A DNA stretch of 64,000 bases from a virus (IMGVR_UViG_2778261161_000002), one strand, 5' to 3'; shown: positions 61 to 50,215, counted from the stretch's first letter. Program-made: numbers and translations. The notes: generated by a model from the letters alone, not told the origin.

Positions 61-86
61 TTCTCTTAAACCAAGGTTTAGGATTG
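61..86. other. cix/hix-like crossover site for the invertase (imperfect palindrome around AAACC-AA-GGTTT)
   Basis: TTCTCTTAAACCAAGGTTTAGGATTG resembles Hin/Gin/Cin recombination sites; overlaps the 3-prime end of cin. Confidence 0.45.
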
Positions 87-638
87 AAATGATGACGCCG
101 GAAACTTCTTATAAAGCGTGGAAACAGCCACATCATAGATGATTGCAACCTGCTTACGGGGGATGCCCTTCTCGAGCAATCGCCGCATTTGCTGCCATGT
201 TTCTTCTTGGTATTTAGGCCGACGCCCACCTATACGACCTTCTGCGCGAGCTGCATCAAGTCCAGCGCGTGTACGTTCAACGATAAGCTCACGTTCCATT
301 TCTGCCAGCGCCCCCATTACGTGAAAGAAAAAGCGCCCCATTGGTGTACTGGTGTCGATGGAGTCAGTGAGACTCCGGAAGTTAATGCCTCTGTCACGCA
401 GCTCTTCCACCAGCACAACTAAGTGACGCATGCTGCGCCCAAGACGATCTAACTTCCATACGACTAGGGTGTCACCTCTGGAAAGCATACGGAGAACCTT
501 TTTTAACCCTGGGCGTTCAGCCTTTTTGCCGCTCGCCTTATCCTCAAAAATTAGCTCACATCCTGCGCTTTCAAGGGCGTTTCGTTGTAAAGCGGTGTTT
601 TGGTCATTAGTTGATACGCGAATGTATCCAATAAGCAT
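78..638 (-). CDS. cin: serine DNA invertase, Cin/Gin/Hin/Pin family
   Basis: 186 aa; N-terminal GYIRVSTNDQ catalytic-serine motif and C-terminal HTH; near full-length match to P1 Cin as recalled. Confidence 0.9.
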   Translation of the reverse strand: MLIGYIRVSTNDQNTALQRNALESAGCELIFEDKASGKKAERPGLKKVLRMLSRGDTLVVWKLDRLGRSMRHLVVLVEELRDRGINFRSLTDSIDTSTPMGRFFFHVMGALAEMERELIVERTRAGLDAARAEGRIGGRRPKYQEETWQQMRRLLEKGIPRKQVAIIYDVAVSTLYKKFPASSFQS

Positions 639-1516: not shown

Positions 1517-2126
1517 GAATAATTATGTTCTTCTTAATTATGCTGAATTAAACGAAAAGGGGCTGGCAAAACTCGTCAAAGAAATCAGCAAAGGTGGTTA
1601 CAAGATAGCGAGGGTGATCCCTGCAAGTAATGGCAGGAAGAAAGATGGGATCATGACGCGCACGTTTACCCTTATTGGTATTGATGAACAGACAATGGAA
1701 GTTCAGGTTAACGATACCGGCGATATATCTGGGATCAAACTGAATGGTAAAACAGTACCGTTCAAGCCAGTAAAAACAATGTCGGCTTTGGGGCAATCTC
1801 TTGCGGCTTTATTTAATCGCGGAGCAACTTCTTTCCAGAAGTCATTAGCTCGAAAACTTGCTCGTGCAGCAAAAAATATTGATGACGGAAATAAGAAGCG
1901 GCAGGGAGTTAAATCTAACGCTCAGAAATTAGCTGAAGCGAAAGAATCACGTGATGCACTCCGTGAAGATATCGCTAATGCTAACGACAAACTGTCTAAA
2001 CTCCAGAGCAAGTCAGACAAAGTAATGCAAGATACGGGTAACGTTAAAGCTGCCTTGTCTCAGGAAGTAGCTAAGACACGTGCTCTTAAAGAAGAAATCG
2101 CGCGTCTGGAGGATGAGCATGATTAA
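1506..2126 (+). CDS. hypothetical coiled-coil protein, dar-like operon
   Basis: ORF with GGAG 5 nt upstream of ATG at 1506; charged helical C-terminus. Confidence 0.5.
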   Translation: MSNKNNYVLLNYAELNEKGLAKLVKEISKGGYKIARVIPASNGRKKDGIMTRTFTLIGIDEQTMEVQVNDTGDISGIKLNGKTVPFKPVKTMSALGQSLAALFNRGATSFQKSLARKLARAAKNIDDGNKKRQGVKSNAQKLAEAKESRDALREDIANANDKLSKLQSKSDKVMQDTGNVKAALSQEVAKTRALKEEIARLEDEHD

Positions 2127-4062
2127 CAATCCTTTACGAATTAATATTCAGTCTACTTTTGCTGATACGATCCCCGGCTATATGCCAAGTCGCTGGTCTT
2201 CAGAAGAATTAAGCGAAGATGACCTGATTTTTGAGGCGGCGACCTTAGAAGATATTGAGCTTGCCTATATGGGCAATGAAATTCTGGTTGTGTCTGACGA
2301 AGCTATGTTTGAGTCCATAACTACAACCAGAATTCGGTTAGCTCAAACAATGCGAGCTTTCGTCCGTGCGCTGAATCGTGGCCTGAATGGTACGAATATT
2401 ATGGCAGGGACTGATGAAGCTGGGACCGATGAAAATGGACGTAATTGTATTGGTGGTGCGATTATCGGTCGTGTACGTCGGGTAGCTAATATCCCTGTTT
2501 TGACCGCGCAGATACCGCTTACTGACGGGCAGAGTACAAGCATAATTTTCCACTCTCCAACAGCTGACGGGGCAAAAATAAAGAGTAACGACGAGCTTGT
2601 TGCATTTCAGTTTTTACTTAATAAGCGTAACGTAACTCACGTTGTCGCCCCGATTGGTGGGAGAGATGTTTCTTTAAGCCAGGTATGCCAGGCGCTATCT
2701 AATTTGATTGAGCGTAACAGCGAAAAATTTAAGAAAGCAAAAGAGCGCCAGGACAAAATGAAGGCAGATATTGAGAGTTATCTCAATGAAGCAGATAAAC
2801 TGGCAGAAGAACGGTCAATAATGATTGATCAGGTGGACGTTGCGCAACGTGGGCTGACTGAAAAGCGTGCTGCTCTTACGGAGATGCAAAAAAAACTTGA
2901 TGCCCAGAAAGCTATCAATGAGGAATTACAAGCAAAACGCGATAAATTGTTGTCTGCTAAAGGTGAAAAAACGAAAGAACGAGCGTTTAGTGACCAGCTG
3001 CGACATGTAAAACATAATCTTGCCATTGACGGAAAAACAGTGCTTGATAATGGCGCTGAAGTTAATTATGTCACGTCCGGCAGTGACAATTTCGTTACGA
3101 TAGTAGCACCTGAAGGTAAATTCAGTATTGATGCCAGTGCTGTCAAAGGAGGCAGTTTGGCAGATGCTGCAACCAAATTACTTAAAGCCTACCGAGAGCA
3201 TAACGCAGATAAATATAAAGTTGATGTGTTACCAGGCCAGTTGGAAGACTCCGAACCACCACAGACAGACCCCGAAACGAACCCAGTATTACAACCAGAG
3301 AGCCAAGATGTAGGTGAATACCACTATGCACTTCAATCTCGCCCGGCTGGTGTTGGTGCTGTTCCGGATGGAAATAAAGCCGTGCTTGATCGTCCTGACC
3401 AGGCTGATCAGTATTACGAATATGCTCGTCACGGTATCATTACGTATGACCGTAAACTGACAGATGAAGAAGTCAGCCAGTACGAGTTGCTTTATCTTCC
3501 TGATGAAGATGAGCTGAAAGATTTTGCAGGCCAATTGGTTGCGTCCAGCATGTCGAAACATATTGATGGCTATGTGGACCTGTTTGGCAGTGACCTGAAA
3601 ACATTCAAGGCGCAAGTGAAAATTCTTTTCCGCAAAGCGTTTCCAAACGTGGCGTATCCACTTAGTGATGGGGAGAACCTTTTCATTATGGACGTGTATA
3701 ACGCCCTTCAAAATCATTCAAGCGAAGTAAAAACAGAGCATGTGGTTGAGCCAGAATCACAACCACAACCACAACCACAACCACAACCAGCACCAGAACA
3801 GGAGTCGGAGCCAGAAGAAGCGGGTGAATCAGCAAGTGAAGCTGATCAGGAAGCAGATAAAGCGCTGGAGTACCTGAAATCCGTGCCGGAGCAGTTTACA
3901 TCCCGCGATCTGACGGTCATCAGTGCTGAACTTGATCATGTGCAGGAAGCAGCAAACGCTCTAATCAGTGCAGGTCGATACGACGAGAACGAAGCCACTG
4001 TGGGTGCAGCAGTTGACTACCTGATCAATATTCTGGCTGAAATTCAGCAGGGAGGTGTTTAA
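2119..4062 (+). CDS. large virion-associated protein (DarA-like by position), with PQ repeat linker
   Basis: about 647 aa ORF, GGAGGA before ATG 2119; coiled-coil centre, (PQ)5 linker, acidic tail; no motif proves DarA identity. Confidence 0.45.
   Translation: MINNPLRINIQSTFADTIPGYMPSRWSSEELSEDDLIFEAATLEDIELAYMGNEILVVSDEAMFESITTTRIRLAQTMRAFVRALNRGLNGTNIMAGTDEAGTDENGRNCIGGAIIGRVRRVANIPVLTAQIPLTDGQSTSIIFHSPTADGAKIKSNDELVAFQFLLNKRNVTHVVAPIGGRDVSLSQVCQALSNLIERNSEKFKKAKERQDKMKADIESYLNEADKLAEERSIMIDQVDVAQRGLTEKRAALTEMQKKLDAQKAINEELQAKRDKLLSAKGEKTKERAFSDQLRHVKHNLAIDGKTVLDNGAEVNYVTSGSDNFVTIVAPEGKFSIDASAVKGGSLADAATKLLKAYREHNADKYKVDVLPGQLEDSEPPQTDPETNPVLQPESQDVGEYHYALQSRPAGVGAVPDGNKAVLDRPDQADQYYEYARHGIITYDRKLTDEEVSQYELLYLPDEDELKDFAGQLVASSMSKHIDGYVDLFGSDLKTFKAQVKILFRKAFPNVAYPLSDGENLFIMDVYNALQNHSSEVKTEHVVEPESQPQPQPQPQPAPEQESEPEEAGESASEADQEADKALEYLKSVPEQFTSRDLTVISAELDHVQEAANALISAGRYDENEATVGAAVDYLINILAEIQQGGV
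3758..3788 (+). repeat. (CACAAC)x5 tandem hexanucleotide repeat encoding PQPQPQPQPQ
   Basis: perfect tandem repeat read directly in the sequence inside the 2119..4062 CDS. Confidence 0.85.
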
Positions 4063-4430
4063 TGACCATCTCTGTTTTAGACCGCCTGAAATTAGGTAAA
4101 GAGCTATCAGATCTAATGCAGGCGCAGAAAACTGCGCCAGTATTGCAACGCGTCACCATTGGTAAGCAGATTGTTGATGTGATGCTGAAATTGGGCCTGG
4201 GGACTGCCGCGCAACCGGCAGCGGAACCGCAACAACAGGCTGATCCTGTTGTAGATGAAGTCCCTAAGATAGTGACTGACTTCCTGGGCGGTGTGTTCAC
4301 AAAGTCCACACAAATGGAATTTATTGATGCGCTGCGTGGGATCTCAAACTATGTTGGCGAGTTCCTTACGTTGGAGCAGGCTAAAGAGCAGACCATAAGC
4401 TGGGTGAAAGCTAACGGTTATGCCGGGTAA
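4062..4430 (+). CDS. hypothetical protein
   Basis: 122 aa ORF, TAATG overlap with upstream gene. Confidence 0.5.
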   Translation: MTISVLDRLKLGKELSDLMQAQKTAPVLQRVTIGKQIVDVMLKLGLGTAAQPAAEPQQQADPVVDEVPKIVTDFLGGVFTKSTQMEFIDALRGISNYVGEFLTLEQAKEQTISWVKANGYAG

Positions 4431-4512: not shown

Positions 4513-5910
4513 TTGGAGTGTATTTTGAACAAATCAGTTACTTCTGCGCTTTCCGAGGCCGCAGATATTAACAGCGTCATTGCTCTGGTTTCTTCATTAG
4601 AGAGGAAAGAAACACACCTGGGGCGAAGTAGCTACGTAGTCACCAGCAAAGGTGCAGAGGTAAAGACGGCTTTTAAGGTCGTTGATGCCAGCAGTCTGAT
4701 CATTTCGAACAACCTTGACGGTACGATTAACCCGGCCTTCCCGGAAGAACTCCAACCACGAGATCGTACCCGGCTATCCAGCAAACTCCAGGTTAACCGT
4801 ATTGCCTCCAATTTACGCCCGGCACAATTAACGGATTCCGGTATGAGCAGCCACGGAGCGCCTATAGTTGGTCCGGACAACGTTGTTGAATCCGGCAACG
4901 GAAGGAGTATGGGTATCTGGCGTGCCTATGAGCAAGGACAGGCGGATGAGTATCGCCAGTACCTGATCGACCATGCGAAAGAGTTTGGTCTGAATCCTGA
5001 CGAAATTTCGCAAATGTCTATGCCCGTACTGGTGCGAGAAAGACTCACAGATGTAGACCGCGCTCAATTTGCCCGCGATTCAAACATTAGCGATCTGCAA
5101 GAGATGGCAGCAAGTGAAAAAGCGTATGCGGATGCGCAATTTCTCACTGAGAGCGTCATGGCGCTATTTAATCCTTCAGATGATGGAAATCTGCTGGCGC
5201 GGTCCAATGATGCGTTTATTCGTGCGTTTTTGCGCGAAATTGGCGATACAGCGACGGCAGGCTTGCTTACTGCCGATGGGCGTCCCACGAAACAGCTTAT
5301 CGATCGCATCCAGAATGCAATTTTTGCCAAAGCGTACAAGGATGAAAGGCTTGTTCGGCTGGTGTCGGAAGAGCCAGATCCGGAAATGCGTAATATCCTG
5401 ACCGCATTAAATACGGCAGCCAGCGATTTTGCGCAAATGCAGTCGCTGTCTGGCGACGCTCACCATGACGCAGTAACAGGCTTAGTGGACGGTATAGAGC
5501 AGGTTAATGGCCTGGATACACAGGCGATAGCAGCACTCCAGGAAGCAATTAATCTTGTACGTGAAGCCAAAGACAACGGTCAGGCCGTTGAAGAAGTGAT
5601 CGCCCAAAGGGGGTTATTCGGCGACAGTACACCGGAAGCTGAGGCATTGGCGCTATTCATCGTAGCAAATAATCGCAGTGCGAAGCGTATGGGGGCAGCA
5701 TTCAAAAAAATGGCGCAAAAAATCAACGACGAGCTGACTCATAAACAACAGGCATTGGGCGATATGTTCGGCGGTGGCGATGTTGATCTGCGTCGTATTT
5801 TGTCTGCTGTATCTGATGAAATTGAGGGTGAATTTGGCGAAGGGAAAGGTCTGAACTTTGCTATGTTTGAAAATTCTACGGATCTAAATAATTGCCGTAC
5901 GGAAAACTAA
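4513..5910 (+). CDS. hypothetical protein (possible virion internal protein)
   Basis: 465 aa ORF with uncertain TTG start; no recognisable catalytic motif. Confidence 0.45.
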   Translation: MECILNKSVTSALSEAADINSVIALVSSLERKETHLGRSSYVVTSKGAEVKTAFKVVDASSLIISNNLDGTINPAFPEELQPRDRTRLSSKLQVNRIASNLRPAQLTDSGMSSHGAPIVGPDNVVESGNGRSMGIWRAYEQGQADEYRQYLIDHAKEFGLNPDEISQMSMPVLVRERLTDVDRAQFARDSNISDLQEMAASEKAYADAQFLTESVMALFNPSDDGNLLARSNDAFIRAFLREIGDTATAGLLTADGRPTKQLIDRIQNAIFAKAYKDERLVRLVSEEPDPEMRNILTALNTAASDFAQMQSLSGDAHHDAVTGLVDGIEQVNGLDTQAIAALQEAINLVREAKDNGQAVEEVIAQRGLFGDSTPEAEALALFIVANNRSAKRMGAAFKKMAQKINDELTHKQQALGDMFGGGDVDLRRILSAVSDEIEGEFGEGKGLNFAMFENSTDLNNCRTEN

Positions 5911-9916: not shown

Positions 9917-10094
9917 CGGAATGTATGATCTGCATCATCGACTGAAGTCATCCATTGCTGAAATTTTTAGTTGATCTTCCATGTTTTCAGGCTTATATTC
10001 ATGCCGTCGTAGCAAATTCTGCGACCAGGTTTGACAGCCTGAATGTTAGTGCGGACAACCGCAGATTTCCGATATTGCGGTATTTTTGTGTCCG

Positions 10095-10215
10095 TAAACC
10101 GCGTTACGCCCGAATTATGGTGGGGCGTGATGGGGAGGCTTCGGCCTGCTGGTCTCACTAACGCCAGTCTGTCAACCCTGTCACGTCCTGCCACCTGTTT
10201 GACAGCGGGTAGCAG
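10095..10215 (+). ncRNA. c4-like antisense RNA region of an immI-type module
   Basis: GGTCTCACTAACGCC (10151-10165) is complementary to the direct repeats CCTGAATGTTAGTGCGG (10037-) and CCTGTTAGTGAGGCC (10224-); the latter overlaps the icd RBS; exact RNA ends unknown. Confidence 0.4.
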
Positions 10216-23312: not shown

Positions 23313-23389
23313 GATGGTGTAGCTCAGTAGGATAGAGCAGCAGCCTTCTAAGCTGTCGGTCGGTGGTTCGAATCCATCCACCATCGCCA
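23313..23389 (+). tRNA. tRNA-Arg (anticodon UCU)
   Basis: hand-folded cloverleaf: 7-bp acceptor GATGGTG/CACCATC, anticodon loop CTTCTAA, T-loop TTCGAAT, encoded CCA; resembles E. coli argU. Confidence 0.85.
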
Positions 23390-23391
23390 AT

Positions 23392-23464
23392 GCCGGTTTA
23401 GCTCAGTTGGTAGAGCGCCTGCCTTGTAAGCAGGATGTCAGCGGTTCGAGTCCGTTAACCGGCA
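23392..23464 (+). tRNA. tRNA-Thr (anticodon UGU)
   Basis: acceptor GCCGGTT/AACCGGC, anticodon loop CTTGTAA, T-loop TTCGAGT. Confidence 0.85.
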
Positions 23465-23476
23465 CCGACACAACAG

Positions 23477-23550
23477 GTAAGGGTATTTTGCGACGTCGGA
23501 GATCGCCGTGCTTGGCAGAGGGTTCGAATCCCTACGAAGTACCCTTACCG
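23477..23550 (+). other. tRNA-like remnant (non-canonical)
   Basis: GGTTCGAATCC T-loop motif inside a 10-bp stem GGTAAGGGTA/TACCCTTACC; no canonical cloverleaf. Confidence 0.3.
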
Positions 23551-23921
23551 TTGTGATGAAGTGCAGCTCTTTGAAGCAACCAGAAGATAAGCATCTGGCT
23601 TCACAACATAAACCGCATGAACGACCAATAAACGGTAGTCCGTATGGAGAACACCCCGTTGAGGAAGAGGCCTGGCCGGAACCGTAACCGGCACTACAAC
23701 GTTGAGAACACTGGCGTAACGGGGTCATATCCCAATCTATGAATAAATGTTGCGTTGCAGCGTGACAACCAGTGTTCTCAACATTGTGGTGAATGCGCAG
23801 GCTGATGCGCGAAAGACATTGCAGCTATTGCGGAAAAGAGCTGTTCGGCGGGGCAATTAAACGCCCGTGAGAGTCTGAAATAACCGCAAGCCGGAGATCA
23901 GCACCGGTCGCCACAATCAGC

Positions 23922-24008
23922 GGAGAGTAGGGGGCATGGTGCTCAAGCGGTCTTGAAAACCGTCCCATTGCGCAAGCGATGATGGTTCGATTCCATTACT
24001 CTCCGCCA
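23922..24008 (+). tRNA. tRNA-Ser (anticodon UGA), type II with long variable arm
   Basis: acceptor GGAGAGT/ACTCTCC, anticodon arm GGTCTTGAAAACC as in E. coli serT, T-loop TTCGATT, CCA encoded; D-arm atypical. Confidence 0.55.
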
Positions 24009-24168
24009 TCGCAACGTTAAGAGTATTTGGCTAATTAAGCGAATGCCGGAAGCAGAACCGGATCATCAAATGCGTACAGGCGTCATCGCCGCCCAGCCAG
24101 CCAAGTGCTCTTACCATTGCGGTGAATGCGGCTAAGCGCACGCGGAACAGTTAAAACAATCCTCCTTA

Positions 24169-24492
24169 GTGGTTAAGTCAAACATCCCGGCGTTAATTGT
24201 TAACTGGTTAACGTCACCTGGAGGCACCAGGCACCGCAATCTAATAAAGTTTCAAGCAATGGGGTTTTTGTTGTCAGACTTCAGATATAGATGGTTGTGG
24301 AAGGAGAGCCTGTACATAGTGCAGTTATTTCTTCCGCTATTTGTCTGCTTTGTCATGCTTCCTGAGCTGAAATACGCAATTTCAGACACTTTAAGCACTA
24401 TCGTTACTTTTGTGTTTTATCTTTACTTTGATTACTTATTGAGCACTAAAATCAATGAATTATCCGAGGAAATGCAAGGTGGCTGTAAGTGA
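24169..24492 (+). CDS. small hydrophobic protein in tRNA island (start uncertain, possibly 24259)
   Basis: AT-rich ORF with two hydrophobic helices. Confidence 0.3.
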   Translation: MVKSNIPALIVNWLTSPGGTRHRNLIKFQAMGFLLSDFRYRWLWKESLYIVQLFLPLFVCFVMLPELKYAISDTLSTIVTFVFYLYFDYLLSTKINELSEEMQGGCK

Positions 24493-24620
24493 TGGATTTT
24501 TGGGCGTTTGCCGATAAGAACCCTGGTTGGACATTTTTATTTTTGCTGGTGGTTGCATATGGGGTCGAGCAAGCGGCTAAAGCCTTACGCGGTTCTGGCA
24601 AAAAGCGTAAGCGGAATTAA
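24492..24620 (+). CDS. 42-aa membrane peptide with basic tail
   Basis: MDFWAFADKNPGWTFLFLLVVAYGVEQAAKALRGSGKKRKRN; TGATG overlap with upstream ORF; ends 10 nt before tRNA-Ile. Confidence 0.3.
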   Translation: MDFWAFADKNPGWTFLFLLVVAYGVEQAAKALRGSGKKRKRN

Positions 24621-24629
24621 CAGTAATCT

Positions 24630-24705
24630 GGCCCTTTAGCTCAGTGGTTAGAGCAGGCGACTCATAATCGCACGGTCACCGGTTCAAATCCGGTAGGGGC
24701 CACCA
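24630..24705 (+). tRNA. tRNA-Ile2 (anticodon CAU, ileX-like)
   Basis: near-identical to E. coli ileX over the D and anticodon arms; encoded CCA. Confidence 0.8.
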
Positions 24706-49927: not shown

Positions 49928-50094
49928 AATACTGACTGTTGCGCCCTGGCATTATCGTGGGGTATATTTCTACGGCACCTTAGAAAAACGGGTGCCGGGA
50001 TTGGAACCCCGGATAATGCAAAAGGCGACACAGACGCCGAAAGCGTCTTTTCTTGTGTCATGCCATCGCACAGCCATACGTAGCGTTTAGCTCA

Positions 50095-50215
50095 GAGATC
50101 AATGGTAGTGCTGGCTGGGCTGCCGAAAGGCAGGCCGGTTCCCTTTTGCGCCGGTAGTTCCAACCCAGTCAGTGCTACCGCCATTGAGATTGGAACCTCA
50201 CGCGGTAGCTCCTTA
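50095..50215 (+). ncRNA. second c4-like antisense RNA region (distinct specificity)
   Basis: GGTAGTTCCAACC (50152-) complementary to repeated GATTGGAACC elements at 50000 and 50189; same layout as 10030-10240 with different sequence. Confidence 0.35.

Follow-up and report, generated by a model that had tools for sequence, protein, structure and literature searches.

Within the coding sequence of a DarA-like gene, a viral DNA stretch of 64,000 nucleotides (IMGVR_UViG_2778261161_000002; its full length is referred to as the window) carries a short tandem repeat. This locus raises the question whether the repeat changes in length among related elements, and what such changes would mean for the encoded protein. 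A preliminary description had reported five CACAAC units, encoding a proline- and glutamine-rich linker ahead of an acidic tail, and had suggested that linker length may vary among isolates. DarA, an internal head protein, belongs to the defence-against-restriction (Dar) system. In phage P1, DarA and Hdf together bind to the inner surface of the capsid, and DarA exits the head along with the DNA.

The identity of the gene was assessed from its own sequence and from its neighbours. The following genes surround the repeat (coordinates in the window):

78–638, minus strand: cin (ORF list, D6 annotation)
744–1070: lydA (ORF list, D6 annotation)
1070–1516: lydB (ORF list, D6 annotation)
1491–2126: hdf, upstream of darA (DarA_N domain, as in Hdf)
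2119–4062, plus strand: darA coding sequence, 647 aa (ORF list, Pfam, D6 synteny, tblastn, PDB match)
4062–4430: ddrA, downstream of darA (D6 annotation)
4513–5910: ddrB-like gene (ddrB-ParB domain)

The darA start at 2119 is the codon that matches the annotation of phage D6; alternative starts are present at 2080 (GTG) and 2113 (ATG). By hmmscan, DarA_N (PF18788) was found at residues 64–203 over the complete profile (1–122 of 122; E = 5.2e-40, 136.5 bits against a cut-off of 27) and DarA_C (PF18789) at residues 402–464 (E = 2.1e-18, 67 bits against a cut-off of 27). Pfam matches to Trypan_PARP and YflT remained under the curated cut-offs and were taken as low-complexity or chance similarity. 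In tblastn searches, the protein was 94% identical to DarA of phage D6, 37.8% identical to DarA of P1 (94% of the query, E = 9e-109) and about 38% identical to DarA of P7 and relatives. The cryo-EM chain of P1 DarA (PDB 9ukm_I) was matched by phmmer (E = 2.8e-120) and by Foldseek (E = 1.7e-16). In the Foldseek search against the PDB, P1 DarA (9ukm_I, 9vz0_I) was the only protein retrieved, and the C-terminal region was without significant analogue. Thus, the earlier assignment as a DarA-like gene was borne out by both Pfam domains, by the identities to DarA of D6 (94%) and P1 (38%), and by the match to chain I of 9ukm.

The gene order lydA-lydB-hdf-darA-ddrA-ddrB is that of P1 and D6. At the DNA level, the homologous region is 95.9% identical to Escherichia phage D6, and over its first 25 kb the window shares 99.3% identity with E. 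coli plasmids about 93 kb in size. Judged by sequence, the window is a D6-like phage-plasmid. The exact DarA protein of the window is recorded on 119 contigs.

The repeat itself was the most prominent of the tandem repeats in the window and occupies this position:

3758–3789, plus strand: hexanucleotide array (CACAAC)5.3 (TRF, exact match, translation)

Tandem Repeats Finder (TRF) described the array, CACAACCACAACCACAACCACAACCACAACCA, with a period of 6, 5.3 copies, 100% matches and the consensus CACAAC. Its score of 64 was the highest in the 64-kb window, where the other nine rows scored 30–38. The exact 30-mer (CACAAC)5 lies at 3758–3787, and no second run of this hexamer was present in the window. 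In dinucleotide-preserving shuffles of the window, (CACAAC)5 was found in 0 of 100, even with three mismatches permitted. The array consists of perfect, short head-to-tail units beyond what chance yields; the repeat first reported is real and had been placed correctly to within one base.

Translation of the frame that ends at 4062 confirmed that a Gln/Pro dipeptide repeat is encoded, as had been proposed. In this register, the array reads (CAA-CCA)5 at 3760–3789 and yields (Gln-Pro)5, i.e., DarA residues 548–557. It is preceded by a TCA codon, giving the peptide context S-(QP)5-APEQESEPEE, with VVEPES before the QP array and APEQESEPEEAGESASEADQEADK after it. In all five units of the array, Gln is encoded by CAA and Pro by CCA, compared with 32% CAA among the Gln codons and 50% CCA among the Pro codons in the rest of darA. 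Under the codon usage of darA itself, the chance that all array codons are identical in this way is about 1e-4. The uniform CAA/CCA codons point to an origin of the array by recent DNA duplication, rather than by protein-level selection alone.

Where the array lies in the protein was addressed with an AlphaFold2 model built on 52 homologues; the region comprises these features:

3733–3834, plus strand: linker 2, Pro/Gln/Glu-rich, residues 539–572 (34 residues; AlphaFold2, composition)
3802–3813, plus strand: second in-frame indel site, (GAGYCR)2 = Glu-Ser-Glu-Pro (allele table)
3838–4050, plus strand: conserved C-terminal three-helix domain, residues 574–644 (AlphaFold2, conservation)

Linker 2 holds the QP array and an acidic stretch, APEQESEPEEAGESAS. 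The alternating-proline run QPQPQPQPQPAP (residues 548–559) is located between a helix at residues 517–540 and a helix at residues 574–592; no DSSP element was assigned between these two helices, and the pLDDT was below 50 at residues 539–556 and 558–572. Downstream, the C-terminal helices at residues 574–592, 598–617 and 621–644 were modelled with block-mean pLDDT values of 79–87. Invariant or near-invariant columns among the 52 homologues include E574, A575, D576, Y585, L586, L615, A618, G619, E623, N624 and E625. The array is thus predicted to occupy a central position in this linker, through which the conserved C-terminal three-helix domain is attached to the remainder of DarA. The acidic tail of the preliminary description was upheld in its charge, since the 30 residues following the array carry a net charge of -9; it is not a tail, since the conserved domain of about 70 residues follows. 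The second in-frame indel site lies 12 nt downstream of the array, where relatives carry one or two units; its alleles are GAGTCGGAGCCA, GAGCCGGAGCCA or GAGCCA alone.

Two other stretches of the model had low confidence, namely residues 1–65 and residues 374–396, the latter being a second linker. Residues 1–65 are predicted to be disordered and correspond to the approximately 69 residues that are absent from mature P1 DarA (PMC12810830), in line with N-terminal processing as in P1-type DarA, a head-packaged protein that protects DNA from type I restriction. In the P1 cryo-EM structure, DarA residues 70–382 were resolved, and residues 383–639 were unresolved, which was attributed to flexibility (PMC12810830). 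The DarA C-terminal three-helix domain on its tether, the length of which is evidently free to vary, belongs to the part unseen by recent cryo-EM. Paralogues of this domain were sought with an HMM derived from the 52 homologues among 557 six-frame ORFs of the window, and DarA alone was found (E = 1e-34; next best E = 1.1). This profile search gave no indication of further copies of the domain in Hdf, DdrA or DdrB.

The preliminary description treated the repeat on its own; the repeat stood, and it can now be read as the local version of a linker found throughout the family. Searching 5.8 billion proteins yielded 153 DarA relatives, with lengths of 386–927 aa among the 120 listed. Most full-length relatives carry alternating-proline stretches, (XP)n, of 8–36 residues at two positions: one just past the capsid-binding part, at about residues 378–410, and the other directly before the conserved C-terminal helical domain, which is the site of the QP array. 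Trypan_PARP matches in Pfam are frequent among DarA relatives because of these alternating-proline stretches. A five-way alignment shows what stands in place of the QP array elsewhere, namely QPEPAPAQPDET in P1 and APAPAPAPAPEPTPEPE in Cronobacter phage JK004. At the DNA level, the JK004 stretch corresponds to a perfect (GCACCA)3.8 repeat, and the first linker of JK004 holds an 18-nt repeat; no tandem repeat was detected in P1 darA. The (XP)n tether is therefore part of the conserved design of DarA, and a hexanucleotide repeat at the DNA level has arisen in it at least two times, independently in JK004.

In order to determine copy number among relatives, loci were gathered from IMG/VR (20), from PLSDB and RefSeq E. 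coli plasmids (15, picked to span the range of match lengths), from phage D6, and from metagenome contigs with the right junction of the array (11). In a genome collection holding one genome per species, this right junction had 0 exact matches. Units were counted between conserved flanks, and 38 array-bearing sequences were scored as follows:

1 unit: 3 sequences
2 units: 15 sequences (the commonest allele)
3 units: 1 sequence
4 units: 6 sequences
5 units: 4 sequences
6 units: 3 sequences
7 units: 2 sequences
8 units: 2 sequences
9 units: 1 sequence
12 units: 1 sequence

Copy number, for which a comparison across related genomes had been suggested as a check, was not invariant. The longest array belongs to plasmid pYU39_89, for which TRF gave 13.5 copies because the codon preceding the array is CCA in that lineage. 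Among 60 listed PLSDB plasmids, match lengths ranged from 639 to 705 nt, and 58 differed from the 663 nt of the query by a multiple of 6.

Ten loci were without a scorable array. Eight of these, including phage D6, have the diverged non-repetitive allele SHPQTAPEQQPTPED, whose DNA (CACCCACAAACA) differs from a two-unit array by two substitutions. Locus L016 has one CAACCT unit and then GCACCA in duplicate, and locus L034 has 1-nt indels within and after the array; both arrays were left unscored. One-nucleotide frameshifts of darA are present in some deposited assemblies (L028, L029, L032, L034); the frameshifts in these few records are 1-nt indels and not changes in repeat units. Since assembly quality varies, a minority of the unit counts could be wrong. 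For strain WCHEC035148, two independent assemblies gave the same match length.

The pace of these changes was judged against point substitutions in the flanking DNA. Among pairs with two or fewer substitutions in about 3.7 kb, 13 of 14 differed in unit number, each by one gap that was a multiple of 6 nt (6, 12, 18 or 24 nt). The linker length, which had been suspected to vary among isolates, thus does so, with 1–12 units in 38 relatives and with differences in 13 of 14 near-identical pairs. Examples of such pairs are the following:

L002 and L040: 0 mismatches in 4660 nt, 4 and 5 units
L002 and L022: 1 mismatch, 4 and 6 units
L031 and L035: 2 mismatches, 2 and 6 units
L025 and L030: 2 mismatches, 7 and 5 units

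Four Salmonella plasmids with 0 mismatches over about 3.7 kb had 12 (pYU39_89), 8 (pSL26_91), 9 (pN17S0016-2) and 7 (pFSIS11922707-2) units, and each pair of them differed by a single gap of 6–24 nt inside the array. On these comparisons, no other site found in this region of D6-like phage-plasmids changes as fast as the array.

The internal structure of the arrays was informative as well. Some arrays are broken by the variant unit CAACTA (Gln-Leu), denoted b where the regular unit is a, and form the series aaaba, aaaaaba and aaaaaaba; the variant itself is duplicated in aabba. Such an interrupted series is the pattern that would be expected from slippage with stepwise gain of units. The right-flank haplotype GAGCCGGAGCCA occurred with only one or two units across well-diverged backbones among the collected samples, and arrays of at least three units showed eight different lengths among 20 sequences. 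This relation between haplotype and length fits a length-dependent instability of the array, in a small sample and with phylogeny ignored.

From these population data, we consider it highly probable that the array is a coding variable-number tandem repeat (VNTR) that changes by slippage within a length-tolerant and probably near-neutral spacer of DarA. CAA-CCA units would be gained or lost whole by slipped-strand mispairing during replication of the phage-plasmid, and such changes would accumulate faster than point substitutions. Because the unit comprises 6 nt, each change of the array keeps the reading frame. Gains and losses would only lengthen or shorten the Gln-Pro spacer, which lies in a proline-rich and acidic linker, predicted to be flexible, between the DarA_C-containing region and the C-terminal three-helix domain. 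Near-neutrality of the linker length is assumed here; since the DarA family tolerates very different (XP)n lengths, length changes are probably near-neutral. Array lengths could also be transferred from one backbone to another by homologous recombination between alleles. All array differences are multiples of 6 nt, so darA would never be switched off by them. On/off phase variation was excluded, as the 6-nt unit is contained in the ORF and none of the array alleles disrupts the frame.

If the spacer were not neutral, its length could be functionally tuned and the variation adaptive, with the QP rod setting the reach of the C-terminal domain from capsid-bound DarA. Recruitment of the Dar cargo (DarB, Ulx, DdrA, DdrB), head-size determination or release upon injection would then be altered, and the hypermutable array would let the phage-plasmid explore lengths in a contingency-like manner. 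Conservation of the C-terminal domain is strong, in contrast to the variable tether ahead of it, and the occurrence of (XP)n linkers at the same two positions throughout the family suggests selection for a spacer. Independently, JK004 acquired an AP-encoding hexanucleotide repeat at the site that corresponds to the QP array. Moreover, DarA and Hdf of P1 govern head size and the incorporation of the Dar system (summary table, PMC9024508). Nevertheless, copy number showed no association with host or source in this small sample, and the exact five-unit allele of the window occurs in E. coli and Salmonella alike. The commonest allele is the short, stable one of two units, and the D6-type alleles and P1 do without any DNA repeat. 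Adaptive tuning of linker length was therefore regarded as unlikely. The rise of a polyproline II helix is about 3 Å per residue, and an increase from 1 to 12 units is estimated to add roughly 6–7 nm if the spacer is extended. It appears quite improbable that the QP array acts as a tunable molecular ruler, in which 1 to 12 or more units would shift the reach of the C-terminal domain by several nanometres and thereby change the type or amount of cargo or the ratio of small to large heads.

Two further readings concern the DNA rather than the linker. The length differences might stem mainly from homologous recombination among co-resident or co-infecting D6-like elements, by which existing alleles are shuffled. 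The darA region is indeed mosaic, with the diverged non-repetitive D6-type linker allele present within otherwise similar genes, and L031 is separated from L035 by four units at once, against just 2 substitutions. However, the four Salmonella plasmids are identical over about 3.7 kb that includes both flanks and differ only inside the array. Recombination would need breaks inside a repeat of 40–80 nt, which amounts to unequal exchange within the array and is itself repeat-mediated, and the interrupted-array series resembles stepwise growth. As the main source of length differences, the shuffling of alleles is thus very improbable. Regularly spaced identical hexamers also resemble arrays of binding sites, and the RNA is CA-rich, so that the array could be a cis-acting DNA or RNA element (protein-binding hexamers, or a CA-rich translational or RNA-binding element) that lies in darA by happenstance. 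Yet it is missing in D6, P1 and many close relatives with the same operon organisation, its copy number shows no constraint over the range of 1 to 12, and no other site in the window has the hexamer run. Scanning 3500–4200 for promoters and terminators gave nothing at the array, and the surrounding 700 nt were without a promoter-like site. The RNA fold of 3720–3830 was no better than that of shuffles (z = -0.27), and Rfam, searched with the whole window, had no match at the array. With the scan, the fold and Rfam all empty at the array, this cis-element reading was rejected as extremely improbable.

Slippage in a tolerant coding spacer has parallels among known repeat systems. Hexanucleotide VNTRs used in multilocus VNTR analysis (MLVA) of enterobacteria, such as STTR5, STTR6 and STTR10pl of S. 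Typhimurium, likewise consist of short, perfect head-to-tail units on a mobile element and vary in copy number among close isolates; the array described here differs in being located in darA of D6-like phage-plasmids. The units of STTR5, STTR6 and STTR10pl are 6 bp long, and STTR10pl is plasmid-borne. STTR6 is located on the prophage Gifsy-1 (PMC3901673).

With contingency loci, the array shares repeat-driven hypermutation in a gene that is engaged in conflict with another organism. The contingency loci of Haemophilus and Neisseria switch expression on or off by frameshift or promoter spacing, whereas the DarA array would modulate length only, in whole 6-nt units and with no frame shift.

DarA of P1 shows the same domain order and the same lydA-lydB-hdf-darA-ddrA-ddrB neighbourhood, with 38% identity over 94% of the length, and has the short Pro-rich stretch QPEPAPAQPDET at the homologous position ahead of the same C-terminal helical domain. 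In contrast, P1 darA is without a DNA tandem repeat, and the gene of the window belongs to the D6 lineage and not to the P1 genus. Since P1 darA lacks the repeat, the P1 linker is not expected to vary in length by slippage.

At the protein level, a spacer of the TonB type is similar in having proline at alternate positions, in comprising at least four dipeptides and in lying between domains. There is no homology between the two, the partner residue in DarA is Gln (Glu, Ala or Thr in relatives), and the DarA spacer is much shorter. In domain II of TonB, a type II polyproline helix that gives reach is built from Glu-Pro and Lys-Pro repeats (PMC10666116). By analogy, the DarA spacer may adopt a polyproline II conformation; AlphaFold2 gave low confidence and no secondary structure for it.

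DarA and coding hexanucleotide VNTRs on mobile elements are already known. A literature search on DarA, tandem repeats and phage-plasmids found no published account of the darA repeat or of its use in typing, and a population paper on D6-like plasmids of Salmonella ST213 (around pYU39_89) made no mention of darA, repeats or indels. The darA array is best viewed as an ordinary in-frame, slippage-prone repeat that is useful mainly as a typing marker. Because nothing else differed over about 3.7 kb among the four Salmonella plasmids, typing of the array could offer an inexpensive, high-resolution means of tracking D6-like elements, e.g., those of Salmonella Typhimurium ST213 or of Shiga-toxin-producing E. 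coli.

The natural alleles of 1 to 12 units also provide a simple handle on the role of the C-terminal domain. If linker length matters for loading of the Dar cargo or for head size, the array would represent repeat-driven tuning of a phage counter-defence protein. Under the improbable reading as a molecular ruler, the fact that repeats arose at the linker more than once (QP here, AP in JK004) could mean selection for evolvability in such a protein. For database users, the array serves as a warning that differences in DarA protein length would mostly reflect noise in repeat number. The 90%-identity protein cluster that contains the DarA of the window has 1162 distinct members; those listed are full-length proteins of 639, 641, 645, 647 or 649 aa and one partial protein of 542 aa.

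Length variation in this part of darA was not confined to the QP array, the run of Gln-Pro codons in the second linker of DarA. Located 12 nt downstream of it was a second in-frame indel site, encoding Glu-Ser/Pro-Glu-Pro:

3802-3813, + strand: 6-nt indel polymorphism (GAGYCR)1-2, seen in the alleles of relatives

The alleles among the relatives were GAGTCGGAGCCA, GAGCCGGAGCCA or a single GAGCCA. Repeats were also present in the darA linkers of Cronobacter phage JK004 (locus L038), at the following locus coordinates:

1873-1895: perfect (GCACCA)x3.8 repeat, encoding Ala-Pro
1393-1430: 18-nt repeat (x2.1) in the first DarA linker

The Ala-Pro repeat was independent of the QP array and lay at the corresponding homologous site in the linker. 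In P1 darA (L037), no tandem repeat was found.

In several deposited plasmids, 1-nt indels caused darA to be annotated as two or three fragments (NZ_CP027382.1, NZ_CP122828.1, NZ_CP031917.1 and CP123702.1; loci L028, L029, L032 and L034, respectively), with one such indel in CP123702.1 lying inside the QP array. These split genes represent either assembly errors or real pseudogenes.

DarA homologues also differed in overall length. The short homologues from Yersinia and Xenorhabdus (P0120-P0134; 386-395 aa) were limited to DarA_N and the coiled-coil, capsid-binding part, and ended approximately where long-form DarA begins its first (XP)n linker. Other homologues reached 927 aa. Judged from these homologues, the region beyond linker 1 looks like an optional module.

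Two genes in the neighbourhood of darA were as follows:

1491-2126, + strand: Hdf homologue (DarA_N match, E 2.8e-17)
4513-5910, + strand: ddrB-like gene (product of only 465 aa, with residues 46-177 forming the ddrB-ParB domain)

The hdf stop (2126) overlaps the darA start region (ATG at 2119), an arrangement that suggests translational coupling of the two capsid-binding partners. Since P1 DdrB is given as 108.7 kDa in PMC9024508, the 465-aa D6-lineage product lacks most of the P1 protein.

Elsewhere in the window, RNA features were found:

23313-24705, + strand: tRNA gene cluster with four members according to ARAGORN (Arg-TCT, Thr-TGT, Ser-TGA, Met-CAT)
10113-10198, + strand: first C4 antisense RNA family match
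50098-50185, + strand: second, separate C4 match
9993-10045 and 49975-50053: elements partnering the C4 matches

Rfam at gathering score recovered three of the four tRNAs, missing Ser. In P1 and P7, C4 antisense RNA serves as the immunity RNA. With two separate C4 matches, one paired with a c4-a1b1 target element and the other with an isrK-type RNA, the element may carry two C4-type immunity modules.
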